46,936 bases of DNA from Geosiphon pyriformis uo1 (GCA_016748015.1 JAAOMT010000306.1:30602-77537); one strand, 5' to 3'; counted from the stretch's first letter, positions 5,064 through 39,008 are shown. A program made the numbers and translations. Notes: generated by a model not told the origin, from the letters alone.

Positions 5064-5074
5064 TACAAAAAATA

Positions 5075-6912
5075 TATTAAAAAACCCAGATTTATGTACA
5101 ACAAATCTAAATTCCCTAAAATTAAGCTGATAGAAACTTCAAGAGCCACTATCTTAGATTCCAAACCACCAACTTTGGAAGTGAGGACCTTCAAACTACT
5201 TAGACCCAAATCTACAACCTTTTTTTCTATTACTGGAGAGGAAAGAAGAAAGGATAGTTATAAAACATTCAGAATTATATTAGCATCAGATGTCAACAAC
5301 ATAGAACCAGGAACAATTGGAGACATAACCTAAGTAACAGACACTAGGGGCACTAGTTTCATACTATTTAATTTGTGCACAATATCAGACATTTGATCAG
5401 CCAGCAATTCTAAAAAATGTTCTAGCAAAGTTAGGCAATTGATGATTAAGAAGCCATTTTAAACAACCAGTGTACTTTTTTTAATACTCAAAGAACCAGA
5501 AGAAAAAAAACCAGACCCAAAGCCAGAATTGAAATAAAAATCACTAAAAGAAAAAACAAGTGACATTATCTGTGTCCAAAACTTGCCACCAAAGGCAGCA
5601 GATCTAAAAATAAGAACACTTTTCTTTGCATACAACTTCACTAGCTGAAGACAACATTCCTTTAAAAAGATTTTTATAACAGATTTTAAAAACTTGGAGG
5701 TGGACATAGTTGGTATGTTACATTCCAAAACAAAATGACCAAAGCACTCACACTTTTTACAATAAACCAAATCCAATTTAGCCGAAGGATGTTTAACACC
5801 ACTAAATATTGGCTCAGTGCAATATGCAGATTCCAATTCCTTTTCAGATTTGAAACCAATCACAGCATAGCAAATCCAGTTGCCAGTATTAAATAAGCAA
5901 TTAATAATACATGTTTTCTCACCAGTTCCATCCAATAGAGTGCCCAAATTATAAGCAATCATTTCTATGGGCAAAGTAAATAACAGAGCTCTGAACTAAT
6001 TCCTTGATGCCCAGATATCATAGTCACTCATAACCATAGCCACACACACTAAATTCTTTTCAATCAAGAAGAACCATTTAGCAGCCAACTACTTAGCTTG
6101 ATCTAATTTAGCAAATTCTACTACAGCTTTTTGCCACAAACCAATGAATTGAATTTTGATTGACTTAATTTCCCCAAATTCAGTTACTGCAATAACAATT
6201 ATATTCTTTAGTGTATCCATGGGAATTTTTTTTATGACCACAGTCTGATCTGAACACATTCTTTGTTTTTTGAGATCAGTGTTTACAACAATTTCTTTTT
6301 TTCTGGCCAATAATGCAGCTTTTTTTATGCTGCTCTCTAAGGTGAAAATAGATCTGATAATTTTTTCAAATTTTGAGAGGATAGTGGCCTCTTCAAAACC
6401 ATTGATTGATAAAAAAATTTTTCTGACAAACTAAGTTTTTGCTGTTACTGATTTTCTTTCCACAGTTAAAAGATTAATATCCAAAGCAAAAAATTTTTTA
6501 ATAGACACTTTGACCTGAGTTTTCACTATTTTAGAATCAACCCACTTTCTGTCAAAAAAGATATTGAAAGAAGAGAGGCGATAAACCATATTATTATCTA
6601 TTCCAAAGTCAATAGTACTAATAGGAGAACTACTAATCAAATTATTACAGACTCTTTTAGCTTTGGGAATTGTTGCAGCTAAACTAATAAAAAAAACCAC
6701 TACTTAAATTCATCACAGTACTACCAAGCTTATTGTCACTCAACTCACTGTCTATATCCAAATACATGCTATTACTAACATCAGATTTGGTTAGAGAAAT
6801 TTTTTTTCATCACCAGAGTGTTTAATATTGCCCACAAAAACTTTTTTTTTTTAAGAAAAAGTACCACTAATAAGACTATAAAAGGCACTTTTTGAAGCTT
6901 TTTTTTAGACAT
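5075..6912 (-). pseudogene. LINE ORF1 (RRM-like domains plus zinc knuckle), degenerate
   Basis: RRM-like segments VVIKKIPMDT...EFGEIKSIKIQ...KAVVEF (6089-6310) and LLFTLP...YAVIGFKS. CCHC knuckle CKKCECFGHFVLEC (ORF 5459-5974). Lies upstream of ORF2; homologous to 30983-31995 and 41561-42210. Confidence 0.8.
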
Positions 6913-7913: not shown

Positions 7914-10900
7914 CTATACATCTATGCTAATAAAAGCATTACCACCTAAACCAAAAAAAAAACAGCACAATCTGCACCTACCAAAACTGATAACAAAAGA
8001 TTTTAAAACACCAAATAAATAAACTATCCCATCTAATAACATAAACACCACACAATAAAACAGGCCTGAAATCATGTTACCATCCTTAACCAAACCAGCT
8101 TTCTTTAGATCCATCCTGTACTTGGACTTAACAAATCACATCTTAGCATAAAACAATTCAACCACAAACTTAACATATTTAACAATAGTTAAAGCAGTCT
8201 TTCTTTTCTCTTCAAAAACTAATGCAGTCTTACTGTCCAATCTATTTCTCCAATCATGGCACCCGAAATAATATTAAAACCAGGACTGGTCTTCTAATGA
8301 GCATGACAAATTAATTGATACAGATCATAAACAAAATAATAAGCATTGCCTAATACAGCAGTGTTTTTAGCAACCAAAAACTGTTCTTGAATCCCAACTG
8401 GCAAAAAATTTGAAGAGAAAGCAGCCTCTTCTGCCAACTTATTAGCCCTAATATTGTTCAGGATTCTTAAATGCACTTTAATTTTCATTTATTTAACAGA
8501 AATGTTTTTATTTCTAATAAGATTAATGATATGCACTCTTTCAATTCAGCATTGATTATAGAAGTCAGACATTGCCATTGAGGTCTCCAACATACAAGCA
8601 TCAATTACAAATTGGCTGTTAAAATACAAAATTACAGAACAAGAAAAAAGAATACATTCCAAGACCAAAGCAATGGCTTGTAATTCAGCCAAAGTGGAAG
8701 ACAAAAGTTCAAAGACTCTAATCCCAATATCTATGTCTGTAGCTGGAAAATAGGCAGCTGCACCACTTGCCATCTCAACCAAACCAGCATTTTTTAAGGA
8801 CCCATTTGTGTAGATCTCAATACAATTCGACCAAACCTTCAAAAAACTACCACTAATATTAGCAAAAACCTTAGAATTCAAAACATTTAGCACCATTAAC
8901 TTATGAGTTTTGGTGAAAACAACCTCTAAAGAAGCATGTTTGCTCATAAATTTAGCCACCAAAATAAATCAGTAGGGAACAGAGCCTCTCAAATCTAATT
9001 TTTTCTACCAACAAAACGTTTTTCAGTCCATCAATTTCCCTCTTTTGTCCAAAAGTCTATCACCAAAAGCAATACCAAATTGCTTCAAAGAGAGAACAGA
9101 ATTATAGTATAAAGAATGTCTTAGGACACCAGATATTGGAAACCTGCCAGACTCTTAAAAAGCACTGGGCAAATTGTTTGTCAAAGATATCTCATTTTTT
9201 AAAAAGATTCTTATTACACCAGCTAGAAAATTATTCACCAGGCTAATTTTTAACTTGACAGGGTGCTGCAAAAGTTTCAAAGAAGACCACCCCAAAATCT
9301 GTAAATCCAAAAACCTATGTTCAAATAAATATCCAAAAATGTCACAGGCATTGGAAAAAAAAACCAGCATAATCAACTTTTCTTCAGATTATATTTGCTC
9401 AAAAAGTTTTAAATCATACAAAAAAGAGTGATGTAAAACTTCATTTGGAAAATCACATGACAAACCAGTCTTAGATCTGAAACTTTTTTTGACCATAACA
9501 TTTTATTTGTGATATACACTTAATGAAACATAACTAAACTGCATTTGATAACCAACTATAGATTAAAGAACAGCCAAGACCAAATAAGAGAATTGTTTAT
9601 CTGTAATAGCTTTTTTAAGCACCACATTTAAAAAAACCCTAACATTCACATGAGCTTGGGCTATACTAAGCTTAAAGAGACCTTCTGTAGACAAAAAAAT
9701 GCTCAAGTACCTGTGTGATTCACTCTGTTTAGCAATTGAAATTAACAAACTATTAATTAAAAGTAAGGCAATCTTGACACCTTGATTGATAGAAATAGCC
9801 ACTGTCTTATTATTATTAATAGAAATATTATTAACAACAAAGAACCTGCTAACAATATCCAAAATGTTCTGTGTAGAAGTCTGACAGCTCTCAGTCCAAA
9901 TTGTGTTATCAACAAAGGCACCAGCAGCCAAAAAAAAAGTTCTCTCTCTAACAGCTTCAACTCAGCCAGTTTTTGCCACAAACTTTGTATCAATATGGTA
10001 GCCACACAAGTGTTTATGTTTCTTAATTTCACATAAAAGTGGATCATAAAATATCTGCCAAAGAAGTGGAAAAAAAACCTCACCTTAATTCAAACCATTA
10101 TGTACTCTGTAATTATTCAAGAGGCCAAAATCTATTATTACTCTATTGATATGATTTCCATGAATGCTGCCAAAAAACTTGATAAACTGACTGCATATCT
10201 TAATGTGATGCAAACTAGTTCTCAAATGATGCCAGTTAACAGAGTCATAAGTCTTGTGTATATCTTGCAATACTAACCAAAGTTTTTTATTCTTTTTCAA
10301 AACATTTTCAACAACTAAACCAATAGCAAAAATTGAAGACTAAATCAAAGTACTTTTTAAAACTGAAAAATTGTTTCCACAAAAAACATTAAATCTGCTC
10401 CATGCTGAAGATATCTAATCAGAAAGAATCTTGGACAAAATTTTCTGGACAGTCTCAATCAGAGCAATAGGCCTAGTATTAGTCAAGACACTATTCTATT
10501 TATAGGGTTTTGGGATCATTGAAACCCATGCTCTCTTCCAAGGAATTGGAACAGCACTCAAAGTCAAGCACAAATTCAACAGCTTTAAGAGACAAGCCAA
10601 CACTTTACTACCACAGTGCTTCCAAAGTTCATTAGGTATTCCCAATAAACTGACAGCCTTATTGTTTGGCAAATCACTAACAACCAAAAAGAGCTCTTTC
10701 ATATTAATTTCTTTTATTACACCAAAAAAGACATTATTGCATATATGATCCAGAGGCATATATTAATAAGACCAAAAGTCAGGCATCTTTAGAAGAACTG
10801 TCTGCTTTTTTGTCTACCCTTCTATGATTTTATTCACCTTAAGTTTCACTTTATCAGATTCAACTAACAACTTATCTTCAATTACTAAGTGATCCAAAAC

Positions 10901-11586
10901 AATCTTGTGAAATAGATATTCAAGAATATTCTTAATTATCTGTTCCTTGTCTGCGCAAAAGTTTTTTATGTGTTGCTTAATTGCCTTTCTAATAGCTGCA
11001 TCCTCAAACATCTTTGATTCAAGATACTTAGACTTTTAATATCTTTTCTTGACTATTGACAAATGTTTGATTAGATCCATTAAACTTACACTAACCAGAA
11101 CTATATCAACTATCTTAGATAACTCAATCTTATCAATAACTGACCAGACTCCAATGAGATGATCAAACTCTTAAAGATCTTCAGAACTCCAAACTTTCAC
11201 AATTTTTGCAACAAGCAGCTCCAATTTGAAAAACTTTGAAAATTGTTTGTTTTTTGAGCAATTATATTCACTGTACTAATGTCTAAAAAACACCACATCA
11301 GCAGCCTATACCAAGACATCTTTCAGCACTAACCATATAGTATCTAAATCACTATCATTTTTTGCATTCTTAAACATGTTTAATCTCACCAACAACTCAA
11401 CAGAAGTTTACTTCTTAAAATACAACCAATGGGTTTTATTTACATGTTCTATCTTGAACTTCTACCAGTTCTGATTGGCCTGTTTGCAAGCACTGTTAAA
11501 ATAAGCATTCAAGAGTCTTTTCAAACCAACTACAACTAAAATTGCTTTATGATCTGTATCAAAAAATTCCAACACATTATTGACAT
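7914..11586 (-). pseudogene. LINE copy 2 ORF2, 3' part (RT, RNase H)
   Basis: Motifs NNKAVSLLGIPNELWK, LVLQDIHKTYDS, GAFVDNTIW, IEIYTNGSL, STLAELQAI; same C-terminus as copy 1. Confidence 0.88.
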
Positions 11587-11816
11587 TGTTACTCATAGAA
11601 TATAGAGAGTATATTAACATATAAATTAGCCAATTAGAAGTGGCTGTAGTAAATGTAAAATTCTAGGATTTCTCTTAAAAAAAATCATAGGATTCTAGGA
11701 ATTTCAGGATTCTTGTACAAGAAATCACAGGATTTCAGAATTTTAGAATTCTTTTCAAGAGGAATTGCAGGATTTCTGGTGTGAAGAATTGAGGAATTGA
11801 GGAATCTCAATTATGT

Positions 11817-12506
11817 TGTTATGGTTGAAACTCATAGTTTTTATTAGTTATCACATATATTAGTCATTAATGTCATATAATTAGCCACCCTATTTTTAGA
11901 TAGTGATTATTGATCTGATCAATAACTTGACCATTAATCTGATTATTGACCTGATCAATGACCTAGTCGTTAACCATTTTCAATAGCTATATAAGTAATA
12001 AGTCTCTTAGCTATAGAAAATTATGTCAAAAATTAAGGAATTAAATAAATAAAATAACAACTTTCATCTCAATTATTCTCTTATCGCTAATTTCTCTTTT
12101 CTTACCTTCAAGTATCCGAACATCTTTGGAATAAAAGATTACTTGTTGGTGTTTACCTGTCTTTTTCCTGAAATGATTAATTGTAGTATTTGAAGATTAT
12201 TAAATAAAATGTAACTGAAAAGCATATCTGATACTTGATATTGAATTCTAAGAGTGCCAACGTGAGGCATAGAATTATACCAAGCATAATCATTTGTTGA
12301 CAGTACAGACTATTCCTCTACCTTCAGATTCTCTAGTTATTTTTGAAAAGAATAGTGACTGTGATATTTTATAAGACTGATCTCGCACATTAAATCCATA
12401 CTTATTTAATTCACTCTTTGAAGTTGAATTTTTTTTGATTATTTTCATCACCTTACAATCCTGTTCTCCCTTGCTATCCATTAGCTTGTTATTCTAACCC
12501 ATAAAA
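11817..12506 (+). repeat. 5' LTR of Gypsy A
   Basis: Direct repeat of 18829-19560; starts tgttatggttgaaactcatag. Confidence 0.92.
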
Positions 12507-12512
12507 TAAAAG

Positions 12513-12529
12513 TGGTGCTCTCTATAAGG
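12513..12529 (+). other. Primer binding site of Gypsy A
   Basis: tggtgctctctataagg, 6 nt after the 5' LTR; similar to the PBS of B and C. Confidence 0.7.
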
Positions 12530-12559
12530 TTGTCAAAATTCACTTATTTCCTCATTATA

Positions 12560-14100
12560 TAGGTAATTACTCATATCTGCCACAGCAATCAGAAGAACAC
12601 TTTGCAGCACACAATAGAAACAATTCAGACTTTATTGAACTCAATCTCCTGCCCTTCTGCTTGATCTGCTTTCCTGTTGAAGAACAATCTAGTAGACAAT
12701 TCCAAGACTTTTAGAACTGGTTTCTGAACAAGCATTCAGCTGAAACTTACACAGCCTATACAATCTATTATTTTGACCAAACTTATTTTGAAGACACTTT
12801 TGAAAAAAGAAACAACAGCATTAATCAGCTCTTATACTTAACAACTTTTGAACAACAGTCCCCTGATTTCGAATATCTGAACCACCAAATTCACATTTGG
12901 ATTACTGCCCACCAATTAGCTATAACTTCCTTTGAAACAGAAGAAGAAAGCTACCAAACTGCTCCTATTTTTGATATCTTCTCAAGCAATTCAGATCATT
13001 CCACCCAAACAGTAACTCCTGAACCAATAATTAATAACCCCATACAAGCAAACATCCTGGCCACTCTTCAAGACATACAAACTGCTTTGGGGCAAAGAAA
13101 CAATGCCTCATTACCACTATTCAGAAGTGATGCACAAGATTTAATTGAATGGTTAGATGACTTTGAAAAAGCAGCTATAGCCAACTAATATGATAATGAA
13201 TACAAGTTTCAAATTATTGGTGGCTATTTCCAAGGCTTCCCTGCCACATGGTTCTCACAAAAAACTGATGCTGGTGCTTACCAAAGAATTATTAGATGGA
13301 CACCAACAAATGCTAAAGAAAAAAACATTTTCTTTACTATCTGGTTTGAAAACAAATTCAGAACTCCAATCTTAATATCCAAATAGTGAATGGAGTTAGA
13401 AAGAAAAACCCAAAGTTCTGGTGAAGTTGTGACTGAATATGCCAAAGCAATCAGAAAATTGATCAAGTGAGTAGACTTTAGAAGAAATTAGACAGAAAAG
13501 CAGAAAATACATTCCTTCACAAAAGGATTAAGAACAGACTTTTCATATGTTCTTTGGCCCCTCCTGGCCCTGAAAGATAATCCTACAATGGATATGGCCA
13601 TTGAACTTGTCCAGAGAATAAAAGACAATCAAAGAATGCATTTGGGACCCATACTTCCAGTTTTTGCTCCAGCTCTTGTCATAACTTCTGCTCCACAAAT
13701 AGCTACTACTTCTTTTGCTGTTCAAATACAAGATCCCAATGAACAATTAATAGATAAACTTATAGTTAATCTTGTTTGGTTACTGGAACTGTTAGCTTAA
13801 GCAGTCAGAAAAAACTAACAACTCCAAAGATCTAGATATGAACCACGCTTCAATCAGCCCCAGCAACCACTATATCAAAGACAGCAAAATTGTGGTCCAC
13901 CTGTGTGTTATCATTGTGGACTAACTGGACATTTTTCCAAAGACTGTAACAATTCTCCATTGCCCCCTCTAGCTTTTAGAAATAATGACACCCAGAATAA
14001 CAAACCTAACAATATTAATTAAAGACCTAATCATGCCAACATCAATTTTTTTGGAGAGAATCCCTTGGTTGAAGCTACTGTTTATCAGCCTTTAAACTGA
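12560..14100 (+). pseudogene. gag: Gypsy A gag (N-terminal extension, capsid-like domain, CCHC knuckle)
   Basis: PLFRSDAQDLIEWLDDFEKA...TQSSGEVVTEYAKAIRKL...FTKGL; CYHCGLTGHFSKDC at 13906-13947; the frame ends at TGA 14098-14100. The start position is uncertain. Confidence 0.8.
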
Positions 14101-16781
14101 TAGGCACACCTTCAAAGGGTGAGAGTACAAGCCAACCAGAAAAAAACCTCTTTTATGTCTTTACCTTAACTGATTATGACCATAACATAGATGAACTAGC
14201 AATCAACACTTTAGAATTAACCAGGAAGAAGAAAAAAGCCAAGATTAATTTTGTTCTGAATCCAAACAAACCATTTATTTCAACTGCTGACAACAATAAA
14301 CCACCAAAAACTAAAGTATTCAAGAATCTTTCAAAGTTGGAATCATCAAAAATAGTACAAAAATCTGGACCTTATTCCATTGTCAAAGATCTCATAGAAA
14401 CTCTTGCACACATTATCTTTGGCCAGTTAATGACTCATTCCCAATTCAGAAAAGATCTTCGCAAATCTTTGATTCCTAAGAAAAAAACACCAAAAACTAA
14501 CAAATGCTCATGCCAAGCTGGACTTGCTGACAACAGCAATGTCATCCCTCTTATTTGTAAGGCCCAAGTGGCTGGTTACTTTATTGATCTAATCCTGGAC
14601 AGTAGATCATCTGTTAGTGTCATTGCCAAACACTTCTTAGAAGCAATTGGCAAAAAGATTGATGAACCATTTACACAACCAATGACCAACATACACGGTG
14701 ACAAAAAGAAAGATCTAAGCATAGCCAAAGCTGTTCCTGTCTGAATCAATGACATCAGTATTGAAACTGACATGGAAGTATCTGAAGCAAAAAAATACAC
14801 CATAATAGTTGACAATAAATGGCTCAAGAAAGCAAAAGCCTTGCTTGATTATGAACTTTGTGAACTGACCATCAGATGTGGTGAGAAACCTATTGTGGTT
14901 AAGTGTCGCCATTAGACAACTCCTCTAGTATTCAAACAAAGCCAAGAAGAAAAACAATCAGATGAGTCAGATGATGAAGAAAGTAATAAAGAAGATGAAC
15001 AAAAAGAACAAGAAGAAACTGCTGAACTTGTCTACACCATTTTTACCAACAATGACAAACCATTAGATAATGTCAAAGCAGATAAAAAAGAAATCATAGT
15101 AAATGGCAAGCTGATCTGCTGGCCCTATTATGATATCTTTAGAAGAACCTTTAACCGAAAGCCTGGCAAAAAAGCCAAATACAATTATTGGTGGCATGGC
15201 CTTTGTGCCAGATGCTGATACAATAAATCTTTGTATTCTCTCAGTGATGAATGCAAATCCTGTTTGATCTATTACAAAGATTGGGAACCAATCAGTTTGA
15301 TATCCAGAGAAAAAATAAAAGAAGTACAGAAGTCCTTTGAGAATAAATCACCTAAGATCCAATTACTTGTTGTAGAACAAAAAGAACCTTCCCCAAAAAA
15401 AAGAAAAGTAGATATTGAAAACCTATTAACTAGAAACAGCCCAGTTATCTCAAAAAAAGGTAATACCTCTGGATGAATCCATATGATACAACATACCATT
15501 ACAACTAAAGAAATTCATTCCATATATTTAAAACTTTATTAATCCAATCGTCATAATGATGAATTTATCAAGAAAGAGATAAACCAGATAAAAAATCTTA
15601 GATTCATACAAGAAACCAAAAGTGAATGGGCTTTCCCAGTTGTAGTAGTATCCAAGAAAGATGAAACTCTATACTTCTGTGTCAACTACTGTCAATTAAA
15701 TGCCATCACTATAAGAGACATGTACCCACTTCTTAAAATTGATGCAATGCTAGACAAATTCAATGGTGCTGCTTTTTTCTCAACTATTGACTTAATTGCT
15801 GGATTCTGGCAAGTAGAGATGAATTCAGAAAGCAGAAAGAAAACTGTTTTTATTACCAAGTATAACACCTATGAATTCATGGTTATGCCTTTTGGTCTCA
15901 CAAATGCCCCTCCCACCTTTTAATGCCTAATAGACAAGATGTTTAAATCAGTGAAAACAAATTTTGTTCTAGTTTACTTGGATGATATAATGGTATACTC
16001 AAAAACCTGGGATAAATACCTTGAACATTTACAAAAGATTTTTGACCTGCTCAAAAATACTGGCCTTAAGATCAACCCAATTAAATCTTTCTTTGGATGC
16101 CAATTCACCCAGTTTCTTGGTTATTTTATTACAAAAGATAGAATCTTCTCTGATCCAGCCAAAGTTGAAAAAGTTCAAAACATTAGACAACCAATGAATG
16201 TTCTTGAACTATGCTTTTTCCTTGGTTTGGCCTCTTACTATCGCAAATTTATCAAAGATTTCTCTAAAATTGCCTTCCCACTAAATCAGCTATTCAGAAA
16301 AAATGTTAATTATTACTGGGACACTTATCAACAAAAAGCTTTTGAAATTCTAAAGGAAAAACTTGTTATTGAACTAATTCTCAAACAATCTGACTTGGAT
16401 CAACCTTTCATCCTCTACACTAATACATCTGGCTATAGACTTGGTGCTGTTCTCTTACAGAAAGATGAAGATGGCAGAAAACATGCTATAGTATATGCCA
16501 GTAGATCTCTGACACCAGTAGAAAAGAACTATTCAGTAACTAAACAAGAATGCTTAGCAGTAGTTTGGGCTACTAACTACTGAGATCAATATTTTCTTGG
16601 TGCCAAATTCCTGGTAGTAACAGATCATCAAGCCTTGGTTTGGCTGTGCAATAAAAAGAATCTGAAACATAAATGGATAACTCACTGAATACTTCATTTG
16701 AATAAATTTGACTATAATATTCAACACTGCAAAGAAGCTAATTATCAAAACGCCAATGCTCTTTCTAGACTTACCATCTAG
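14097..16781 (+). pseudogene. pol: Gypsy A pol (protease, RT, RNase H)
   Basis: Protease LILDSRSSV; RT DLIAGFWQV, VMPFGLTNAP and YLDD (15975-15986); RNase H YTNTSGYRLGAVL, KQECLAVVWA, ANALSRL; stop TAG at 16779-16781. Confidence 0.9.
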
Positions 16782-16845
16782 TGACAATACAATCTCTCAA
16801 ACCAAACCAACTTAATTATTAGTAACTCTTCCACAAACAAACACG

Positions 16846-18162
16846 ATAATAGACTTGGACAACTATTCTGTCTTAATAGAATTTTTGGGTAAAAGACAAT
16901 ACCCACTGGACTATACTCGACAACAAAGAGAACATTAGTGCAAACAATCAAATTTCTATTTGATCTGCCAGAACCAGTTATACAAAAGAAACAGAAAAGA
17001 TTCTGATCACCCCCAGAGAGTCATAAAATTTGAAGAAAAAGAAATTGTAATCTACAACATATATACTGATCCATTAGCTAGACATTTTGGAAAAACAAAA
17101 ACAATCTAGAAAACTTTAGCTTGCTACTATTGGTCTACCTTGGAAAAAGACATTGCTGAATACATCAAAATCTGTAACATTTGCCAAAGAAGAGGCAAAC
17201 CCAATCACAAAAAAGATATCCATCCAATCTCTGTTGGTCAACTATTTAACAGAATTGGTATAAATGTTGTTGGACCTTTAACAATAACTCTTAATAGCAA
17301 CAGATATATTATTACAGCTACTGACTATCTCACAAAGTGGGTAGAAGCAAGAGCCACTTCAGACTAAACAGCAGTCTTAATAGTCAATTTCATTTATAAA
17401 AATATCATTTGTTGTTATGGCTGTCCCAAAGAACTTTTATCTAATAGAGGAAGAGTTTTTCTCAGTACACTAGTTGAAAAACTCTGCAGGAAAATGGAAA
17501 TATGTCATAAACTTTCCTTCCCTTACCACTCTTAAACAAATGGCTTAATAGAATGTTTCAATAGAACACTATGTGAAATCTTAGCCAAAACTAGTGAAAA
17601 AACAAACCTATGAAACAAAGTACTGCTTTCAGCCTTGTTTGCTTATAGAACTGTAAATCATGACATAACAAGTTATGAATCTTTTTATCTGCTCTATGGA
17701 AGAATGGCAACTCTACCAATAGAAATTAATATTGAAACAATACCCTTTGAAGAAATCACAATAGGGAATTACAAAGACATTTTGCAAAGAAGACTTGGTA
17801 CCATTTTTGACTCACTTGTAGAGGCCCAGATAATTGCTTTTGAAAAGATGAAACAGTTCCAAGAAAAGCTTAAGAAGAAGAAAACTTATAAAACACTTTC
17901 ATTAAGTGTTGGTAACTTAGTTTTGGAATATCATTCAAACAGAAACAATGTTTATGGTAATAAATTTTCTAGTTAGTAGAAAGGACTCTTTATAGTCAAC
18001 AAAGTTTTGAACAATGATTCTTATATCTTACAAAATCAATATGGAACAATATTCAATGATCATTCTGTTCATGATATACGACTTAAGAAATATTACAAAC
18101 AACCTGATTGGTTACTTGTTGTGGTAATACTAACCCAAATGATCAGCAAAAATGAGATATAA
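16846..18162 (+). pseudogene. Gypsy A integrase, separate reading frame
   Basis: HFG...CNICQR zinc domain; rve core IGINVVGPL...DYLTKWVEA; ALFAYRT; all in one frame that differs from RT/RH. Confidence 0.85.
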
Positions 18163-18203
18163 ATAAATGCACCATTTTCAAAACAGAGATATCTTCAATT
18201 GAC

Positions 18204-18815
18204 ATGAATAATTATTTTCTGGATCAAAACATTCAAAACACTTTCTATACTTTTCATGAGTATTGGATCAAAAACTATCCAAATGCTACTTTAACTATTG
18301 GAAAACAGACCACTATAACTGATAACAGCAGAATACATACTGTTATTAGACCCAAGAAAACAACAACCAGAAGAGAAAGAATTGGTAGCAAAATGGATAA
18401 GTATCTGCTAGAAAGCATAACAGTAATAATACTTGCACCTTCCATCATAATTGAAAAAGCAATTAAAGAAATCTTGCCCATAAACAAAAACTTGTCATAT
18501 GAAAGACAACTAAAACTCTATGGTTGCCTTGGTAAAATCATAGAAAATATAAAGCTCATAAAGAAAACAACTTCTAAGATACAAATAGAAATTTTAGCAT
18601 TATACGGTTGAATGTCCAAAGAGTTTTAACCATTGCAAGAAGAGCCAAAACTCTTATACAAAGATTTGGTCTCTTGAATACAAAACTTATTTCACCCTAA
18701 GTACTATACATCTTATCCACAAAAGACTTCAACAAACTAGTTAGTTTTGAATTAGATAAAACACTTCAAGTATATTATTCTATAAATAGTTTGATTTTGC
18801 CAGAGCTCAATCTCT
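18204..18815 (+). pseudogene. Gypsy A 3' accessory ORF of unknown function
   Basis: 135-aa ORF from ATG 18204; the reading continues past stops and an indel to F-A-R-A-Q (18796-18810) just before the PPT. Confidence 0.6.
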
Positions 18816-18828
18816 TTGGAGAAGATGA

Positions 18829-19560
18829 TGTTATAGTTGAAACTCATAGTTTTTATTAGTTATCACATGTATTAGCCACTGATGTTATATAATTAGCCAT
18901 CCTATTTTTAGATAGTGATTATTAACCTAATCAATGACCTGACTGTTGACCTGATCATTGACCTGATCATTGATCTGATCAATGACCTGACCGTTAACCT
19001 GATTATTGATCTGATCATTGACCTGATCAATGACCTAGTCATTAACCATTTTCAATAGCTATATAAGTAATGAGTCTCTTAGCTGTAAAAAATCATGTCA
19101 AAAATCAGAAAATTAAATAAATAAAATAACAACTTTCATCTCAATTATTCTTTTATCACTAATTTCTCTTTCCCTACTTTCAAGTATCTGAACATTTTTG
19201 GAATAAAAAATTACTTGTTGGTGTTTACCTGTCTTTTTCCTGAAACAATTAATTGTAGTATTTAAAGATTATTGAATAAAATGTGACTAAAGAGCACATC
19301 TGATACTTGATATTGAATTTTAAGAGTGCCGATGTGAGACATAGAATTATATTAAGTGTGATCATTTGTTGACAGTACAAACTATCTCTCTACCTTCAGA
19401 TTCCCTAGTTATCTTTGAAAAGAATAGTGACTGATCTCGCATATTGAATCCATACTTATTCAATTTGCTCTTTGAAGTTGAATTCTCTTTGATTATTTCT
19501 ATTACCCTACAATCCTGTTTTCCCTTGCTATCTATTAGCTTGTTACTCCAACCTGTAACA
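18829..19560 (+). repeat. 3' LTR of Gypsy A, with expanded ~12-bp ttgacctgatca tandem array (~18920-19045)
   Basis: tgttatagttg...acctgtaaca; preceded by purine tract ggagaagatga (18818-18828). Confidence 0.92.
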
Positions 19561-20004
19561 ATGTATATATAGCAGTAGTATTAGAAAGAAAAAAAGCAAA
19601 ATCCTTTAGTTAAAGATCTTTCAGTTTAGATTTAATCTAAGCAACTTTCCAACTCACAAATATTAATAAATAATTATTTTTTATCTCAAATCTACTTCCT
19701 ACTATTAACATTTCATGTTAATAGTAATTGATACTTAACCACACTGGAACAATAGCTCTTGATTACAGCTATTAACAAGATACTAACCATTATTGCCTTG
19801 GCTTATTTTCTTATTTTTTTTATTGTTATTTTTATTTTTCTTTCTTTTGTTGTTATTTATTAATTGATTAAAGAGAAAGTGCTGAGATACAGACATCATA
19901 GGGACTGGTAAAAAACCTGTAAAACAAGAGTAGAACACTCATAGATTTAAGAATAGCTTACTAAGAGAATTACCAGCCACCATGTTGAGAAAAAAATTTG
20001 ATGG

Positions 20005-20850
20005 TGTTATGAGTAATTATTTGAGATATTGAATCAAATAACAAATCCGTAATTTGGTGCTAAAAGTTATTTGTGTTAATGTTATTAATCTGAAAATTTT
20101 GTATCTGAAAGTTTTGTATCTGAAGGTTTTGGTTTGAGTTCTTTGTATAATGGACAGAGATTCAATAATTGTTTTATCCATAGCTTCCCGAAACTGCAGT
20201 TTTGTTAATTTTTCTCTTGGCATGATGGCCGGCAATCCTCTGATAAGTATTTTGTATCTTCTGTACATGTCCTACCCTCTCGTAGGAGTCTTTTACTAAG
20301 CAATTCTTGACGTCAGTAATCTAGTGCTTTATTCAACTAATTAGTGCACAACAATAAAATCAAAATAAAATAAAGAAAAAAAATAAAAGAAAATAACAAA
20401 AGAAAAAAAATAAAAGAAAATAACAAAAGAAAAGAAATAAAAGAAAATAATGAAAGAAAAAAAATAAGCCAAGGCAATTTACAAGTTAGTATTCCATCAA
20501 TAGCCGTGATCAAGAGCTATTGTTCCAGTGTGATTAAGTATCAATTACTATCAACATAAAGTGTTGATAGTAGAATTAGGTTTGAGATACCAAATAGTTA
20601 TTTATTGTGTTTGAAAGGTTGTCTAGATAAAATCTAAACTGAAAGGTCTGTCTTTTTAGCTTCTAATTCTACTGCTATATATACATAATTGAGATTTCTC
20701 AATTTCTCAATTCTTCACAACAGGAATTCTGAAATTTCTGGAATTCTGCAATTCCTGAAAAGAATCCTGGAATTCCACCTTTTACTATGTCTACTTCTGA
20801 TTAGTTAATAACTATACTAATATATATTTCCTATATTTCTATAAATAACA
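20005..20850 (-). repeat. 3' LTR of Gypsy B
   Basis: Direct repeat of 29248-30126. Confidence 0.92.
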
Positions 20851-20863
20851 TTATTCTCTCCTT

Positions 20864-21523
20864 TTAATATTGAGTTCTGTCGAAATCTAACTCTGTTAAT
20901 TCCCCTTCTTGAAGTATTTCTTGAATTTCATTTTCGAGAATTACTTGTGTTATTTGAGTCTGTAATTCTTCAAATTGAGCATTGATGATCTTTCCTAATT
21001 GATTACTGATAACCGTATTCATTGCTTTGTTAAGTAAGATTTCTGGTTGATCTTGAAATGCTGTGTGTATTCAGTATATGGCTCAAGTCTGTGTGAATAA
21101 GTTGTTCTTTTCCACAAAATGTTCTAATTGTTGTAGTATTTTTGTGTCAAATAATTGCTTTGTTTTATCCATATATAAATTTTGAATATTCACATGTTGT
21201 CCCAAGTAAAAATAACAATAGTTTTTTGGAAATTGTTGTATCCACCAATTCCAAGTTTCTTTAGTCAACTCTTGGTATAGTGACTCTTTTGTCAACTCTT
21301 ATATTGCTAATTTTACTTTCGCAATGATTTTGTCAATGGTATTTTCTGTTTTCTTCTGTGTTCTATGTGGCAATGTCTTTCTAGTGTCTTGATATTGGAT
21401 GGTTTGTTGATTAATTGTAATTTTCATCTCTTGGTGTTGAATCAATTGAAAAAGTTGTTGTGCTAGTAAGTAGATGTTGTCTGTAATTTCCATTTTTCTG
21501 ATATTTCTTGTCACATCTACCAT
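20864..21523 (-). pseudogene. Gypsy B 3' accessory ORF (~219 codons, two in-frame stops)
   Basis: ORFs 21299-21523 and 21083-21295 share one frame, which continues to ...FEELQ...DFDRTQY-stop. Confidence 0.65.
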
Positions 21524-21547
21524 GTCTTTATATATTCTTTTGATGAA

Positions 21548-22908
21548 TTAATTTAATGTGTTGTTGTCAATGATGATGATTGGTTCCAGATCTCATGGAA
21601 TCTCCTCTGATTGGACTAGTATCTTCTGTACTCCTAATTGTGAAATATTACTAGTGGATAGTGGTGTGATGTTGTGATATGGTTTCAGTCAATCTCTATG
21701 TATTGCTTTGGTTAAGATTTTGTTATTCAGTCTTAATTTGTAAGCTCTATTCCTTAGAATTTCTTCTATGTAAAATGGTCTATTCCATTTGGGGTCAAAT
21801 TTTCCACTCCATTGTTTTTTTGCTTTGGTACAATGTAAGAGTACTTTGTCTCCAATCTTGAATTCAACTGGTTTGTCTGGTAGTTGATTATCATGTCTTT
21901 TTTTCTGTTTCTCTTGTGACTTTTGTATATTATCAGCTGCTTTTCTTTTTTTGTTTTCCAATGTTTTCATTAAGTCATATGTTCTTCTTAACAATGTTTC
22001 TTGGAAATTCTCTTCTGTTATTGGTTCAGTTAGATATGTATTAACCTCTATCTCAACTGGTAATATTGCTGTTCTACTGTATATCAATTTAAATAGTGTT
22101 GCTTATGTGATGTCTTACTTCATTGTTCGATAAGCAAATAATACTGATAGTATGAACAAATCCTATTTGTCATGGTTTTTTTGGCTAAGTTTTGCTATTG
22201 CTTTACACAATGTTCTATTAAATCTTTCAACTAAACCATTGGTTTGTGGATGGTATGGTGATGATAGTGGTCTTTTAATTCCGAATCTTTGGCTTAATTC
22301 TGCTAATGTTTGGTTTACAAAATGGGTCTCTTAATCTAATAATAGTTTTCTTGGACACTCATATCAACAAATCAGATCTTAATGAACAAATTTGGCAATA
22401 GATTCTGCATCCACTCTTTGAATTGCTTTTGCTTCTGGCCATTTAGTGAGATAGTTTATGGCTATTGCAATATATCTGTTTCCTCTGCTGGTAATTGTTA
22501 ATGGTTTGACTAAGTCAATTCCAATGCAATCGAATGATTGTCCCACTTTGATTGGTCTTAATGGTTTATTTGGTCTGGTTTCTCCTCTTTTCTGACAAGC
22601 ATCACAATTTTGAACATATTGAATAATGTTTGGATACATTGATGGCCAATAGTATCTTTTTCTGGTTCTTTTTATGGTTGCTTCTTTATGAAAATGTCTT
22701 GCAATTGGATTTGAGTGCATGTTGAACAGTATTGTCTCCTGGTTGGTTGATCTGAATCTTTTCTATTTTTTTGATAAAGTATATTTTGGTAAGTGATAAA
22801 ATATTTGGATTGTTGTTTGATTCTCTTTTGTTCCGGTTGAGATAATTTCTCCTTGAACTGTTGAGTATCTATATAATATTCAAGTTGTTAATATTTATGT
22901 GTATTTAT
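21548..22908 (-). pseudogene. Gypsy B integrase, separate reading frame
   Basis: MHSNPIARHF...CDACQK; IGIDLVKPL; YLTKWPEA; YHPQTNGLVERFNRTL; FKIGDKVL...KFDPKWNRPF; C-terminal EPIIII. Confidence 0.88.
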
Positions 22909-22967
22909 CTTTTGTTATGTTGTTGTTGGATGTAGTTTGGTTTTGTTATATTTTTGAATTGGAATGT

Positions 22968-25900
22968 TTAGATTTATCTCATTCATGACAAACCATCAGC
23001 ATTTCTATTGTCTTTTCCCTTTTTATAATGTATAGTATAATTATATGGTGTGAGTGTCATTTTTCATCTTGACTGTCTTTCATCTCCAAATTCTTGTTTT
23101 TGGAGTGATGTTAATTCTTTGTAATCTGTGTACACTTCAAACTTCTGGCTCAAGTATTTTTTCCATTTCATGACTGCTCAGTATATCACTAAGTGTTTTT
23201 GTTCCGGTGTTCCATAGTTTTTTTCGGCTGGTATTAAGTCTTGGCTGGCAAATACTACTGGATGTTCTCTTCTATCCAGTCTTCTCTAAGATAGTACTGC
23301 TCTTAATGCTTGACCTGATGCATCAGTAGTAATAATGAATGGTTTGTTGTAATTTGAATAGATTAATACTGACACTTGAATGAGCTTTTCTCTTAAAATG
23401 TCAAAAGCTTTTTGTTGTATTTCCGTCTATTCATATTTTATGTTCTTGGTTTGTAGATGATTGAGTGGCTGAGCTATTTTAGAAAAGTTTTTGATGAAGT
23501 GACGATAATAGCTTGCAAATCCCAAGAATGATTTTAGTTTGGTCATATTGGTTGGCACTGGAAAGTTCTTTACTATTTTTATCTTGTCTGGGTCTGTTTT
23601 AATACCGTTTTTGCTGACTATATGTTCCAGAAACTTCAGTTCTGTTTTGCCAAAGAAGTACTTGGTAGCATTTAGCTTTAACCCTGTTCATCGCAGTCTT
23701 TTGAATACTTGTTAAAGATGATAGAAATGATTATCAAATGTTCTTGAGAATACATTGGTGTCATCCAAGTACACAACTACTGATTTCCACAATAAGCCAG
23801 TGTACACAATTTCCATTAGCCATTGGAAAGTTGCTGTGGTATTGGTTAAGCCAAATGGCATTACTTCAAATTTGAAATTCCCTTTTCTTGTGGTAAATGC
23901 TGTTTTCTCTTTGTCGGCTGAATTCATAGCTACTTGTCAGTAACTGCTATCCAAGTCTAATGTTGAAAACCATTTGTTTCCTCCAAAAGCATCAAATAAC
24001 TCTTGGATCCATAGAGTTGGATAACTGTCTTCACAAGTGACTCCATTGAGTTTTTTGTAGTCTACACAAAATCTGATCTTTCCATTCTTCTTCCAGACAA
24101 GTACCACTGGTAACGACTATGGGCTCATTGATAACTGGATTAGCCTGTTGTCAAGCATTCTATTGATCTCTTGACAGATGATCTCATGGCTTGCTAGTGG
24201 TACTTTGTATGCCCTTTGTTTGATTAACATTGTATCTCTAGTTTTGATCTGGTGTTGGATGATATCAGTTCTGCCAAATTCGTTTTTGCTGGCAAAGATA
24301 TCATTAAAATTGTTGAGTAACATCTTTAATTGCATCTGTTGAAGTGGATCTAGATTTCCCATATTTATTTGCTTTAGCTGTTCTGGTTGTAACAAATAAT
24401 ATTCATTCCATCCATAGATTGTTTGTGACGTAATATTCACATATTCACACAATTGTGGAAAGTCTGGAATGGTGCTTGGTGGTTGATTCTCAATTTCAGT
24501 GGTCAAATATCTGAGAATAGTTCCTTTCGGTATCTTCACAACATTTCCTGTATTGTTGTAGATGGGAATTTTGATATGATTGTGGTTCTTGGCTGGTATG
24601 TGTAGATTGATAAGTCCAACTTTTTCTGTTTCACAAAGGCTTGTTTCCGCTTCAAAAATTTGTGCCTGATCCTTCACCTTTCTTTCTATTGCTAACATGT
24701 ACTGGTCATATGGTGGAATAGAAATTGCTTGACCCATTGAGATAATTTCTTCTTGGCCAATAATTTTTTCCTTTGCCATATTGACTGATATGTCTATTCT
24801 ATCCATAGATCCGAATCTCTATATCTGTCTCACAGTTATCCCTAATTCTTCCTTATTTTCCACTGAAGCTAACTGAGCTATTTTAACTAGAGACAGGAAT
24901 ATTGCCTGTGCTATCTTCTTGTTTGGCTTTATAATATAGGCTTTTTTAGAGTTATTTTGTAGCATGATGATAATATTTTCTACATATCCCGTGTCAATTA
25001 TTTCTCTTCTTATATTAATCCTTTTTTTTGCTAAACTACTCCTAAATGCTAGTTGAATCATGGTTGTTGCTGGAATTTTCAGTGCTACTTTTAGATTAAT
25101 GCAGATGCGTGAATGTGGTTCTAATTTGATGGTGTTTTTTCTAAAATATCTTAGATCAAATCCTGTATCAGTATCATGCACGCATTTTGGCATAATACCC
25201 TTATTATTGTCACTATACTATTTGAGTTCCTGCTCTTTAGAGAGATTAGGAAGCACTATGTATATTTTGGGATTCGAGTCAGAGTCTGAATTGTTGATAT
25301 TCTTGTTGCCATATTGTGTGGAGCTGGAACCAGTGTTTTTGTTGTCTTTGTTGTCAGAGTTGGAATCAGGATTGAAAATTGATTTTGATTCTGATGTGCA
25401 GCTGCTGATTAGTTCTTCTTCCTTTGGGATCATGTAGATTATGCGTGGTGATGGATTGTAAATGAGGTCACATTCATTACAATATTGGAAATCACATAGG
25501 ATCAAACAGTAGTTATATAGTCTGGTGTTTATTTGGGCCAAACATTGCTCTTGTTCTTCTTTTGTAGGTGCCAAAGTTTGATAATGTTTATGAAACTCTT
25601 CTGGTTCCAGGAGATTTATGACCAGTTCTTTGTTCTAATCAAGTTCTAAGAGTTCTGGCAGGTTGTTCTTGACTTCTTTGATTTTTTCGGGTGATGCTTC
25701 TTGAATTTTGGCAAGGGCTATTCTCTAGATTTTATTATCGTCGTGTAGACAAATGTCCAATCATCATACTGCTGTTCTTTAGGTGGCTTCTATGAGTGTT
25801 TTTTTTCTAATCCAATTGCTGATAAAGATCGTGTACTGGCACAAAGTGTTACATGTTCCTTCTCGACCAGGAATGTCGTTTCACATTCTTTCATTCAAGA

Positions 25901-28900
25901 GTGTCTCTCCACAAGCTAAACATAGTATATTGTCCTATTTTCTCACTCAATTTGGTCTTCCAAAGTGTTCTATGATGCACGCATGGTAGTAGAATTGGGT
26001 TGCTGTTGTGTATTTCTTATTGTTACCACAGCATGCGCCCATTGACAACAATTTCTTGTCGCAATTGACACATATCAGTTTTGGTTGATGATAGCTTAAT
26101 AATTGTGGTAATGTGTATGTATAAAGGGTGTAACTGGCTGTTGGTAGTGGCTCCTCTTTCTTCACTTTTCCTTTTCCTTTTTCTCTCTTATCCTATTTCT
26201 AAATTGGTGGTTCTTCTAAGTCATAATCAATGTCCCAGGCTTGGTCTGCGTTCCAGGCAGGTTCTGTTCTCTTCTGTTTTTTTTATCATTGTCATCTCAT
26301 GAGAGTATTGGCAGCAGTTCATTGTGTTCTTTGTTGGCCCACAAGACTTGATACACTTCCCAAGTAGGTTTTGGTTTTTCTTCTTCAAGATCAATTAGTG
26401 GTGCTGTGGTATTGGTAGCTTTGAAGTGACCACACATTGCTGGTACTCGTGTGTGTTGACCATTCTGGCTGAGTACTAGTTCTTGAGTTATCTAATTGAA
26501 CACAGTGTTGGTTTTAGATAGCCAGTTATTACCAACTAACACTTAGTATTAGGTGGCTTTCATCACCAGAACTTTGATGGGTACTATGATGCCATTGACT
26601 TCAATTTGAAAGTCATTGATTTCGCCAATTGGGGTTTTGGTGGCTCCATCCGCAGTGATAATTCTGGCACTAGCAGTGTGATTAACTCGGCAACCTAATT
26701 GATCCATGAATTGTCGGGTGATAATGCTGCCTGCTGAACCACTGTTAAGGATTAATTTGATAAAATGGCTATTAATTTTGATGTCAGTGTATATGGCCAT
26801 GATCGGTTTCTCTTCAAATGCTGCTCTACTGAATAATGGCGTATCTAATGGTTCCTTGAGTTCAAATGGAAAGATGGCATCCAAAGATTCATTTTCAGTG
26901 ATTGTAGCAGATGGGATATTATTGGTAGGTAGTTGTTGTTGTTTGATTCCCTAATTGCTGAATGCAGCATCTTCTGAAGTCACCAGAAGATTTAAATAGT
27001 GTTGGGAATTTGGGTTTTGGGTGAGACTGGGGCCTGAATTCCACTGACAAGATCCTGATTGTTGGTAGAAAGAGCTAGAAATCGGTTGATGTACAACTAT
27101 TGCCAATCTCCAGTTTTGGGTGATCTTTAATCTTGGGTTCTCTGATGTCATTTGAGCTGGGTTTGCTGGTGGTATTTGAATGGTGGGTGTTTGATAGATT
27201 GCTGGTGGCTGTGGTTGATATATTACTTGTAGCTGCGCCTAATAAATTGCTTGTAATGGCGGTTGATAAATTGGAGTTTGATAAACTGACAGTTGATAAA
27301 TTGGTTGGTGCGTTATAAGCAGGTAAATAGGTTAGTATTGGTCTTGATTCGGGTGATGATTTGAAGTTTGGAACTGGCGGTTGGGTTTCTATATTGATTT
27401 TCTGATCATGGATTGTTATAAGTATGGCAGTTGGCTTTGATGTGCCCTTGTTTACCACAGTTATGGCAGACGCGCGTCTCTGGCTACCACAACTGATTGG
27501 ATAATGACAATGAACGTGACTGATTTTGGAAACAATTTGCATTTTCCTGATTGTTATGCCATTAAGGAGGTTGATAAATTGTGTGATTGTCAGCTAAGTA
27601 TTCCTCTAATTTCTGATTAATTGAATCACTGAATTGCTTTAATTTGGAATCCAATTAAGATGATCTATTCATTGCTAGATTCACAGCTTGAGTGTGATTA
27701 GCTTCTAGTTCAGCTGCTTTAAAATCTCTGGCATATGTGACTGCAGTTGAAAAGTCCACTGAGTGTATTGGACATATTCATTGTAGGATGCTACTGCACA
27801 ATTCTCTAATAAATTGATTTAAAATCTGTGGCACTGTAAAATAGTCGGCTTGGATGGCTTGTATTTGGCGTAAATTTCTATGGAAGCATCCCAAGTAGGT
27901 AGTGACTGCTTCAGTGTCTCCTTGTCTGATCATTGTAAAAGTGTTGGCTAATTTGTTGATACTATTATTGTTGCTAAAGTACCACAAAAATTCAGTTTTA
28001 AATCCATTAAAATTTTGGGGTTTGACAGCAAGATTTTGATACTATGCATTAGTAGTATCCTGGAGAAAGTAAGGGATCACTTGCATCACTCTAGCATCAT
28101 CTTAATTATTGGCTGTAATAGCTTTAACTACGTCATTTAATCAGACTTGGGCATTGTCTTCTTTACCATTAAATTTGTTGAGTTTTGCAATAGGTGCATA
28201 AGCCATTTGTTGTTGCTGTAGTGGTAGAAGTTGAAGTGATTGTTATTGCATGAGTTGTTGGAGTGGTAGTTGAAATGGTGGTTGTATGGGTTCAGCTATT
28301 GGATTAATTGGTGGTTGATTGATGACAATTACTGGAGGTAAGTTTTGTTGATTTATTAAATTGAGATTTCAATTATCCTGAGTTGGTGGTATCTGAATAT
28401 TCGGAGTTTTGATTTCCAGATTTTCTGGGTTTAGATTTTGCTGGGTTTGAAGATTTGAGGTTTCAAATTCTGGGTTTTCAGTGATCAGGTTCTGGTAAGT
28501 GAATTCTTGATCTTTAGCTTCTTCTTCTTTCTCTTCTTCTGATTTTGTTACTTTCCATGGATCAGAAATTCTGAAATCTGGAGGAGGCAGTGGCGATTGG
28601 AGTCCTGATGGCATTGATGATTGCGAGTTAAATCCTTCAAAATATGCACTATATGGTTCTAATAATTCTGCTTTTCTTTGTTTACTTTGGAATGGGAATT
28701 GTCCAAATGCTGATGTTGTGTTTGATGTGGTCACGCTGGTAAATGTAATATTAATGGCACTTCCGGGTGTATAGTGGTATAATGGATTAGTTGGGGACTC
28801 AACTCTTGTTTTCTTCTAAGTAGGTGGTTGTATTCTTTTGGGTATTACTGCTGGTGTTTGCAGTTTTCCTTTGCCTTTGCTTGCATAAGTAATGGGGTAT

Positions 28901-29190
28901 CTTTGCTGTATATGGTGTTCAATTTCTTTGTTAATTTCCATAATGGAGGTGAAATTGTGATTTGTTGACAGGTTGGTATTTTGAATTAATTCACTATAAA
29001 AGGCTTCTCTTGCTAATTCAATATTTACTGGTGTTTTTAACAGATAGGCAATTCTTTTGTTGACATAGAAATTAAAAGCTAATTCTGCTAATATGTGGTT
29101 GTGATTTAATCGCAAATGTTGACAGTAGTGTTGAAATAAGAATTTTGCGAATTCTAGATGGTTTGCTCCTATGTTTTCTGATTCTGCCAC
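22968..29190 (-). pseudogene. Gypsy B gag-pol (gag, CCHC, protease, Cys-rich insert, dUTPase, RT, RNase H)
   Basis: MAYAPIAKL...QGDTEAVTTYLGCF; CHNCGKQGHIKANC (~27427-27468); KLILNSGSAGSII; VMPFGL and YLDD (23760-23771); IITTDASGQAL; NADGLS followed by stop at 22968-22970. Confidence 0.9.
24790..25193 (-). pseudogene. dUTPase domain of Gypsy B
   Basis: Trimeric dUTPase motifs: I (DTGFDL), II (RSSLAK), III (IIDTGYVENI), IV (KIAQAIF), V (decayed RxxxxFGS). Confidence 0.9.
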
Positions 29191-29247
29191 TTTTAGATTT
29201 GGGTTGGTGCTGGTTCTCTAGAATTATACCTTACAGAAAGCACTAAA

Positions 29248-30126
29248 TGTTACGAGTGATTATTTGGGGTATTGAATCAAATAACAAATCCGTAACTTGG
29301 TGCTAAAAGTTATTCACATTGATGTTATTAATTTGAAGATTTTGTATCTGAAGGTTTTGTATTTGAAGGTTTCAATTTGAGTTCTTTGTATAATAAATAG
29401 AGATTCAATAGTTGTTTTATCTGTAGCTTCCTGAAACCACAGTTTCATCAATTTTTCTTTTGACATGATGGCCAGTAATCCTCTGGTAAGTATTCCGTAT
29501 TTTCTGTACAGGAGTTTTTTACCAGACAATCTTTGATATCAGTAATCTAGCGCTTTATTCAACCAATTAGTGCACAACAATAAAATCAAAATAAAATAAA
29601 AATAAAAAATAAAAAAAAATAACGAAAAAAAAGAAATAAAAAAAAATAACAAAAGAAAAAAAATAAGCCAAGGTGATTTGCAAGTTAGTATTCTGTTAAT
29701 AGCCATGATCAAAAGCTATTGTTCTAGTGAGGTTAAGTATCAATTACTATTAACATGAAGTGTTGATAATGGAATTAGATTTGAGATACCAAATAGTTAT
29801 TTATTGTGTTTAGAAGATTGTCTAGATGAAATCTAAACTAAGAGATCTGTCTTTTTAGCTTCTAATCCTACTGCTATATATACATAATTGAGATTCCTCA
29901 ATTCCTCAATTCTTCACAACAGGAATTGCAAGATTCCTGAAATTTTGCAATTCCTTTGAGAAAAATTCTGGAATTCTGGAATCTTGCGATTCCTTGTAAG
30001 AATTCTGTAATTCCTGGAATCCTGCAATTCCTGAGAAAAATCCTGGAATTCCACCTTTTATTATATCTACTTCTGATTAGTTAATAACTATGCTAATATA
30101 TATTCTCTATATTTCTATAAGTAACA
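29248..30126 (-). repeat. 5' LTR of Gypsy B
   Basis: TGTTAC/GTAACA ends; direct repeat of 20005-20850. Confidence 0.92.
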
Positions 30127-32891: not shown

Positions 32892-32954
32892 TTTGATGCT
32901 TCCTATAAGGTATAATCCTACAGAGAACCAGCACCAACACACAACTATCCAAAA

Positions 32955-38979: not shown

Positions 38980-39008
38980 AACACTTTAACCCAAAAATAT
39001 AACAAAAG

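Follow-up and report, generated by a model that had tools for sequence, protein, structure and literature searches.

An integrase reading frame separate from Pol in a lineage of Gypsy-type retrotransposons, with decayed copies in Geosiphon pyriformis

Results and discussion

The window analysed here, a stretch of 46,936 nucleotides (nt) from Geosiphon pyriformis uo1 (GCA_016748015.1, JAAOMT010000306.1:30602-77537), contains three decayed long terminal repeat (LTR) retrotransposons, designated A (+ strand, 11813-19556), B (- strand, 20005-30126) and C (+ strand, 31996-41556), in which integrase (IN) is encoded by an open reading frame (ORF) separate from the one that carries protease (PR), reverse transcriptase (RT) and RNase H (RH). 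In Ty3, integrase is cleaved from the Gag3-Pol3 polyprotein (PMC5371799). The split found in the window is a real, lineage-wide departure from this Pol polyprotein rule, preserved in dead copies, and the order gag-PR-RT-RH / IN / ORF3 is supported as a lineage-wide design in Gypsy-type elements; the mechanism by which the downstream frame would be translated is what we infer. The split is established because sister copies and intact relatives display it, and not on the strength of the window copies alone.

The Pol-integrase junction in the window copies

The junction of element A was read from the contigs of X1, a run with very many sister copies from which the window itself may derive; runs X2 and X3 yielded no aligned piece. 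From X1, 1207 pieces were aligned, none of them covering the whole stretch, and variants were counted when they reached at least 15% of depth. Position 16779 is C in 77% of the depth (30982/40248), so the TAG seen in the window at 16779-16781 is a decayed CAG. At the following codon, TGA (16782-16784), the sole variant at or above the threshold is G>A (30%), which gives TAA and keeps the stop, while A>G at 16851 in 60% of the depth places an ATG at 16849-16851; no indel at the junction reached 15% of depth. The layout of family A is a Pol stop TGA, a non-coding spacer of 64 nt (16785-16848) and an integrase ATG.

These results revise several details of the preliminary description of this DNA, which had reported an ATC-stop common to the three elements. 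The letters themselves stand where they were reported (ATC TAG at 16776-16781 in A, ATC TAA at 22973-22968 in B and ATC TAA at 38974-38979 in C), but the stop named in A is decay and the true one is the next codon; since the A TAG is a decayed CAG in sister copies, its likeness to B and C is a coincidence. The integrase start of A, previously placed at 16846, moves to 16849-16851, and because the two 3-nt errors cancel, the spacer length of 64 nt is retained, as are the 59 and 29 nt given for B and C. In all three elements the integrase frame does differ from the RNase H frame, as had been noted. The (A/G)LSR motif described before the stop is read as LSR in A, but as GLS-stop in B and GLSQ in C. 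The proposal that the initial ATA of each integrase is a decayed ATG holds for A at the corrected start, where most sister-copy depth carries the ATG, while for B and C we infer it from position homology. A family sequence with CAA or CAG in place of the stop and one continuous RH-IN frame had been named as the observation that would speak against a split: the stop named in A is indeed CAG, but the next codon terminates and the two frames stay apart.

For the RNase H end of B and C, a targeted protein search yielded no matching sister copy among 18 candidates. Their shared TAA would very probably be ancestral, about nine times in ten as estimated from the decay counts at YAA sites of B versus C (CC 59, CT 13, TC 13, TT 26). 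The nearest intact relative, L005 (support 98), stops three codons after LSR and continues with a 24-nt A/C-rich spacer. Rather than the single in-frame 30-nt indel first described, the alignment of the B and C spacers shows a 31-nt gap and a separate 1-nt gap, so the frame offset common to both (2 mod 3) is partly accidental and constitutes weak evidence. The part of the spacer common to both elements lies in a different frame in each, which argues that it is non-coding. For this reason, and given the position of the stop in L005, a reading of the B/C spacer as a coding tail with an ATGA overlap was rejected.

Pfam matches identify gag, zinc knuckle, protease, RT, RNase H and integrase on element A, and dUTPase and integrase on element B; the two LTRs of each element are 89-90% identical. 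The features of the three elements are as follows.

11813-12502 (+): A 5' LTR, about 90% identical to the A 3' LTR
12715-14022 (+): A gag (Retrotrans_gag, zf-CCHC; Pfam), decayed, ends approximate
14073-16781 (+): A PR-RT-RNase H frame, decayed; last codon (16779-16781) TAG here, CAG in most sister copies
16782-16784 (+): family-A Pol stop TGA, from sister-copy depth
16785-16848 (+): A spacer, non-coding, 64 nt, A/C-rich, predicted unstructured (sister copies, folding prediction)
16849-18162 (+): A integrase ORF with H2C2 zinc finger and core; the start codon reads ATA here and ATG in 60% of the depth of sister copies
18204-18660 (+): A ORF3 remnant, 41 nt 3' of the integrase stop, no Pfam match, end approximate
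18828-19556 (+): A 3' LTR, purine-rich run before it
29248-30126 (-): B 5' LTR, approximate
24852-25196 (-): B dUTPase domain between PR and RT (Pfam)
22971-24383 (-): B RT-RNase H, decayed
22968-22970 (-): B Pol stop TAA, likely ancestral
22909-22967 (-): B spacer, 59 nt, predicted unstructured
21548-22908 (-): B integrase ORF, decayed and frameshifted; ATA at 22908 a probable decayed ATG, end approximate
20860-21523 (-): B ORF3 remnant, reaching the purine tract, ends approximate
20005-20850 (-): B 3' LTR
31996-32891 (+): C 5' LTR
37452-38976 (+): C RT-RNase H, decayed and frameshifted
38977-38979 (+): C Pol stop TAA, likely ancestral
38980-39008 (+): C spacer, 29 nt, predicted unstructured
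39009-40270 (+): C integrase ORF, decayed; ATA at 39009 a probable decayed ATG, end approximate
40700-41556 (+): C 3' LTR

The split layout in relatives

Metagenome contigs were scanned at the DNA level, and the best 80 of 535 confirmed relatives were analysed. The query was built from stand-alone integrases and so favours this lineage, yet in a DNA search it could not hide fused members. Of the 80 loci, 41 have a detectable RNase H end, and in all 41 a stop precedes integrase; the 39 loci without a detected RNase H end were left out of the junction counts. As a positive control, the same script called 25 of 41 more distant loci, drawn from the other two collections, fused. Also set aside before counting were L068 (wrong ATG picked by the script), L092 and L105 (prokaryote bins), and L019, L027, L044, L069 and L076 (stop visible, motif or Met not placed automatically). 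The lineage members found in prokaryote genome bins (L082, L083 and L092) likely reflect binning contamination.

The 35 scored junctions represent 32 groups at 90% identity and 20 lineages at 70%, with a median pairwise identity of 49%, and both frames are intact in 27 of them. The distance from the Pol stop to the integrase ATG spans -20 to +943 nt overall: it is -20 to -1 nt in 15 junctions, where the integrase start overlaps the Pol stop, 24-97 nt in 17, and 365-943 nt in three, with L041 among these long-spacer loci being likely a broken tail. The start thus lies within 100 nt of the stop in 32 of 35. All three frames relative to Pol are used (22, 7 and 6 of 35), and ATGA and TAATG stop/start overlaps occur in L012 and L049. 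At the protein level, the Met at the column of window position 16849 is the first residue in 25 of 30 near-full-length matches chosen from 95; G. pyriformis gene models account for 25 of the 95 matches to the A integrase, at 59-89% identity and partial lengths. A Rhizopus protein begins at the same Met as the A integrase, and Rhizophagus, Funneliformis and Entrophospora are the named members of the cluster.

The preliminary description had proposed that the shared break was not random decay and that it pointed to a polycistronic gag-PR-RT-RH / IN / ORF3 element, and the relatives bear this out, with every one of the 41 split, most scored junctions intact in both frames, and an ORF3 in many. 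Mutational decay of an ordinary single Pol draws on the state of the window, which is AT-rich, strongly depleted in CpG (observed/expected 0.13) and interrupted in all frames of A, B and C by stops that C>T and G>A changes have produced; the A stop first named is itself a product of decay. Taken alone, the three window copies would not exclude such decay: the integrase frames hold seven stops in B and nine in C, two of which coincide by chance. Nevertheless, the 27 intact split junctions and a true A stop that is always a stop in sister copies make decay of a single Pol extremely improbable.

Phylogeny and classification

The FastTree phylogeny of integrase, built from 238 rows, gathers every split or stand-alone row, together with the window's A, B and C, in one group of 143 rows with a support of 100. 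Only 6 of 97 fused rows lie inside this group; they are genuine single-frame proteins on long branches, one of them with a Met at the same position. An IQ-TREE analysis of 55 rows placed 26 of 27 DNA-verified split rows together (support 87); its subsets (55 and 48 rows) were hand-picked, and the RT tree was thinned by 26 fused proteins. A single origin of the split is not rejected by the approximately unbiased (AU) test (p 0.565 for integrase, 0.937 for RT), a result that does not by itself show a single origin; three fused rows fall among split rows in the unconstrained RT tree. Junctions of the overlap, bare-spacer and structured-spacer types are interspersed on the tree. Protein P0187, which combines integrase with an Ulp1 protease in the manner of Ginger1, falls inside the broad split-integrase group. 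Protein P0135 likewise joins integrase to an Ulp1 protease and is Ginger1-like.

The elements share with canonical Ty3/Gypsy members the long terminal direct repeats, a gag with a zinc knuckle, and the PR-RT-RH-IN order with an RVT_1-type RT. Their integrase has an H2C2 finger and core (Pfam) and a GPY/F-type motif (W-x-G-P-F/Y columns). Purine runs lie before the 3' LTRs as candidate polypurine tracts, and behind the 5' LTR of A stands a TGGTGC-like sequence, a candidate primer-binding site. A chromodomain at the integrase C-terminus, the mark of chromoviruses, gave no family match in P0001 or in the intact relative P0003. In Ty3, integrase lies inside the polyprotein, whereas this lineage has a separate ATG-started integrase ORF, followed by ORF3. 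Because integrase is not the C-terminal part of one Pol polyprotein, we regard the elements as a variant and not as canonical Ty3 members. Neither are they Ginger1 DNA transposons, which have a stand-alone integrase, terminal inverted repeats and no RT: here RT-RNase H lies upstream, direct LTRs flank the element, and gag is retained.

Likeness to the YPYY-motif Gypsy integrases (Athila/Tat-related, Gypsy-1-I_RO, DGLT-A) and to Ginger1 is seen in an aromatic/proline-rich start about 60 residues before the zinc finger and in the GPY/F-type motif at the integrase end (motif definitions in PMC2836005); DGLT-A differs in having a single ORF (PMC5911963). The dUTPase-bearing fungal Gypsy element PosPlaTy3-5 carries its dUTPase between PR and RT, as does element B (PMC2864245). 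Within the window, a dUTPase in this position is found in B by Pfam and in C by alignment (24117-25217 on the - strand and about 36700-37450 on the + strand); B and C also show, by eye only, a second degenerate dUTPase-like stretch 3' of the dUTPase, and a long Cys-rich region separates PR from dUTPase.

A covarying RNA structure before integrase and the third ORF

A 44-nt motif, a candidate translation element or ribozyme, was found in 26 of 84 loci, starting 37-74 nt upstream of the integrase ATG and nowhere else in those loci; 23 of the 26 were in the training set of the model, and a 27th match is weak. It consists of two helices with conserved GUGAAAGC-like and CA..GUGA loops (e.g., L034:4461-4504, L018:17-60). 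Across its ten pairs, 97.8% of cells are paired and two-sided changes occur in seven, and its covariation score exceeds all 500 shuffles and all slid controls, although the structure was derived from the same sequences and relatedness inflates the shuffle test. Since a single copy folds no better than shuffles (z -0.54), support for the structure comes from covariation only. Seven motif-bearing loci had no Rfam match at E up to 1, the pattern was not found in viral contigs, and the best match of the model in the window (E 1.1) is not significant. In L017 (4345-5163), L028, L034, L041, L047, L060 and L061, Pol carries 3' of RNase H a conserved Cys/His-rich domain, about 110 residues long and without a Pfam match; it mostly co-occurs with the 44-nt motif, the exceptions being L006 (motif, no tail) and L061 (tail, no motif).

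Downstream of integrase, 16 of the 21 ORF3s found in relatives belong to one family, mostly of about 140 residues, located between integrase and the purine tract (L020:1596-2039 and 15 related). The family gives a confident helical model (pLDDT 95), and neither a fold nor a sequence match was obtained in Pfam, Atlas, PDB sequences, Foldseek or VIA-align (best Z 4.4). L009 has instead an ORF3 bearing a helix-turn-helix. Comparison of the window ORF3s with this family did not show homology (E 0.09 for B, 0.38 for A).

How the separate integrase would be translated

Integrase may be made by reinitiation after Pol termination on the same RNA, a reading that we hold to be about evenly balanced between right and wrong. 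Ribosomes would terminate on Pol, stay bound to the full-length RNA and restart at the nearby integrase ATG. The small subunit would scan a short, ATG-poor, unstructured spacer, with the ATG chosen by the A at -3; in overlap-type relatives it would slip back up to 20 nt, and in one sub-lineage the covarying RNA structure may help to hold or place the ribosome. Integrase would then join the particle through non-covalent binding, most plausibly to RT-RNase H. Reinitiation is favoured because the starts cluster round the stops in divergent lineages and because the three junction types are interspersed on the tree. An A at -3 is present at 52 of 69 integrase starts versus 129 of 405 internal Met codons, and by this measure the integrase ATG appears to be a true initiator. 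The spacers contain three ATGs in 1062 nt versus 10.0 expected (P=0.002), and those of A, B and C have no predicted structure. In the 21 loci with an ORF3, its start lies at -38 to +174 nt from the integrase stop.

Downstream ORFs that begin on or close to the stop codon of a long ORF, as here, are found in calicivirus and influenza B, which use a TURBS (short for termination upstream ribosome-binding site), in hypovirus CHV1, in victorivirus HvV190S and in SART1; TART-B1 has a stop, 37 nt and then a start (PMC5009743). Reinitiation after long ORFs is described for fungal viruses and for SART1, which requires RNA structure downstream of the stop (PMC10275272). The present junctions differ from these systems in their distances (-20 to about +100 nt or more) and their Kozak-like starts, and no TURBS motif stood out in them.

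Several observations weigh against reinitiation. The ATG depletion of the spacers is unspecific, as GTA is equally depleted (3 versus 9.4). TURBS-type reinitiation drops beyond about 30 nt and is independent of Kozak context (PMC10275272), and the spacers of A (64 nt) and B (59 nt) exceed the stop-start proximity of about 20-30 nt typical of it, as do those of 17 of the 35 relatives, including the three of 365-943 nt; C (29 nt) and 18 of 35 relatives lie at or below 30 nt. Because of these long spacers and the Kozak context, reinitiation here would not be of the TURBS type. No common upstream motif beyond coding constraints was seen in the 35 junctions, and TGGGA, the candidate 18S rRNA-complementary motif of TURBS, occurs upstream of the stop in two of them. 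An A at -3 would be just as compatible with a capped subgenomic mRNA. If Pol is out of the Gag frame (A, L009), reinitiation would presumably yield very little integrase, and a stable fold lying 1-35 nt upstream of the ATG might also repress translation or act as an internal ribosome entry site (IRES).

A subgenomic mRNA whose internal promoter would lie in the spacer or at the end of RNase H is unlikely, although it would account for the good start context (the A at -3), tolerate spacers of up to hundreds of nt, and uncouple the integrase dose from that of Pol; several spacers are, moreover, T- or pyrimidine-rich. In 15 of 15 overlap-type loci, however, the nearest upstream ATG is only 7-69 nt away, and the transcript would therefore need a 5' end within coding sequence and would carry only a very short leader, while the tight clustering of starts round stops would be left unexplained. 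The possibility that the spacer is itself an IRES, acting independently of Pol translation as an unstructured A/C-rich stretch in the window families and as the folded 44-nt structure in the sub-lineage, appears somewhat more doubtful still. In its favour is the covarying structure, which 26 of 84 loci carry close before the ATG and at no other place and which lacks an Rfam match, but 15 of 35 junctions have no spacer whatsoever, the structure is absent from the window and most relatives, and 44 nt is far below the size of typical IRESs.

Splicing of a 5' exon onto an acceptor site immediately before the integrase ATG is improbable. Foamy viruses do express Pol by splicing, and a branch point with YAG and no later ATG is present in 12 of 35 junctions versus 63 of 323 control ATGs, a mild excess; between the last upstream ATG and the integrase ATG, however, 12 of 35 have no YAG and 5 of 35 no AG at all, and no acceptor position is conserved. 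A Pol-IN fusion restored by programmed frameshifting, readthrough or hopping would solve packaging, given that in Ty1 and Ty3 reverse transcription was not rescued by integrase provided separately from RT (PMC5371799), and loosely defined slippery heptamers are present close to the stop in 7 of 35, but these routes are highly improbable because offsets fall in all three frames and a stop closes the integrase frame 1-8 codons upstream of the Met in 23 of 35; where Pol and integrase share a frame, up to four stops intervene, and a universal ATG with a start context would be needless.

Other repeats and decay in the window

Decay of the C>T and G>A kind also affects non-CpG sites, reaching about a quarter to half of depth at some CA sites (16740-16900), and is seen in B versus C too. 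Decayed copies on the - strand at 1107-4446 and 8236-11587 encode an RT and, behind it, an RNase H of the cellular type (Pfam RVT_1, RNase_H) and are likely non-LTR elements; the repeats at 4445-6120 and 30295-31989 are related to them. Segments of the B/C-family LTR recur inverted beside the A 3' end and within LTRs (19561-19865, 20408-20686, 29607-29885, 32275-32722 and 41033-41374). A perfect direct duplication of 306 nt at 45533-46164 adjoins an N gap and is possibly an assembly artefact.

Novelty and implications

Gypsy elements with an integrase ORF of their own were not found described in the literature covered, which did not extend to Repbase entries (where Gypsy-1-I_RO may already show the split), subscription papers or supplements such as Additional file 1 of PMC2864245. 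The available portions of PMC2836005, PMC6839031, PMC3248453, PMC6431247, PMC4427930 and bioRxiv 10.1101/2022.06.16.496473 do not describe one, and the separate ORF in the available text of PMC10508981 encodes an additional RNase H, not integrase. In its widest form, our reading would be of an old lineage of LTR retrotransposons from early-diverging fungi with a tricistronic RNA (Gag-Pol / integrase / ORF3), an uncatalogued 44-nt element for internal integrase initiation, packaging free of a polyprotein, and a place as precursor of Ginger1-type transposases; as a whole this is a speculative picture that is probably not correct in full.

LTR retroelements are understood to control both the amount and the packaging of integrase through its fusion to Pol, and a large, diverse lineage free of that fusion must have solved both the translation of a downstream cistron in a eukaryote and the separate packaging of integrase. 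The natural series of junctions, with overlap, bare spacer or structured spacer, is directly testable in reporters. For genome annotation, tools that require one intact Pol would label intact elements of this kind as broken, and the 'putative integrase core domain proteins' of mycorrhizal fungal annotations may be complete products. The separate integrase also suggests a simple route from a retrotransposon to a Ginger1-type transposase.

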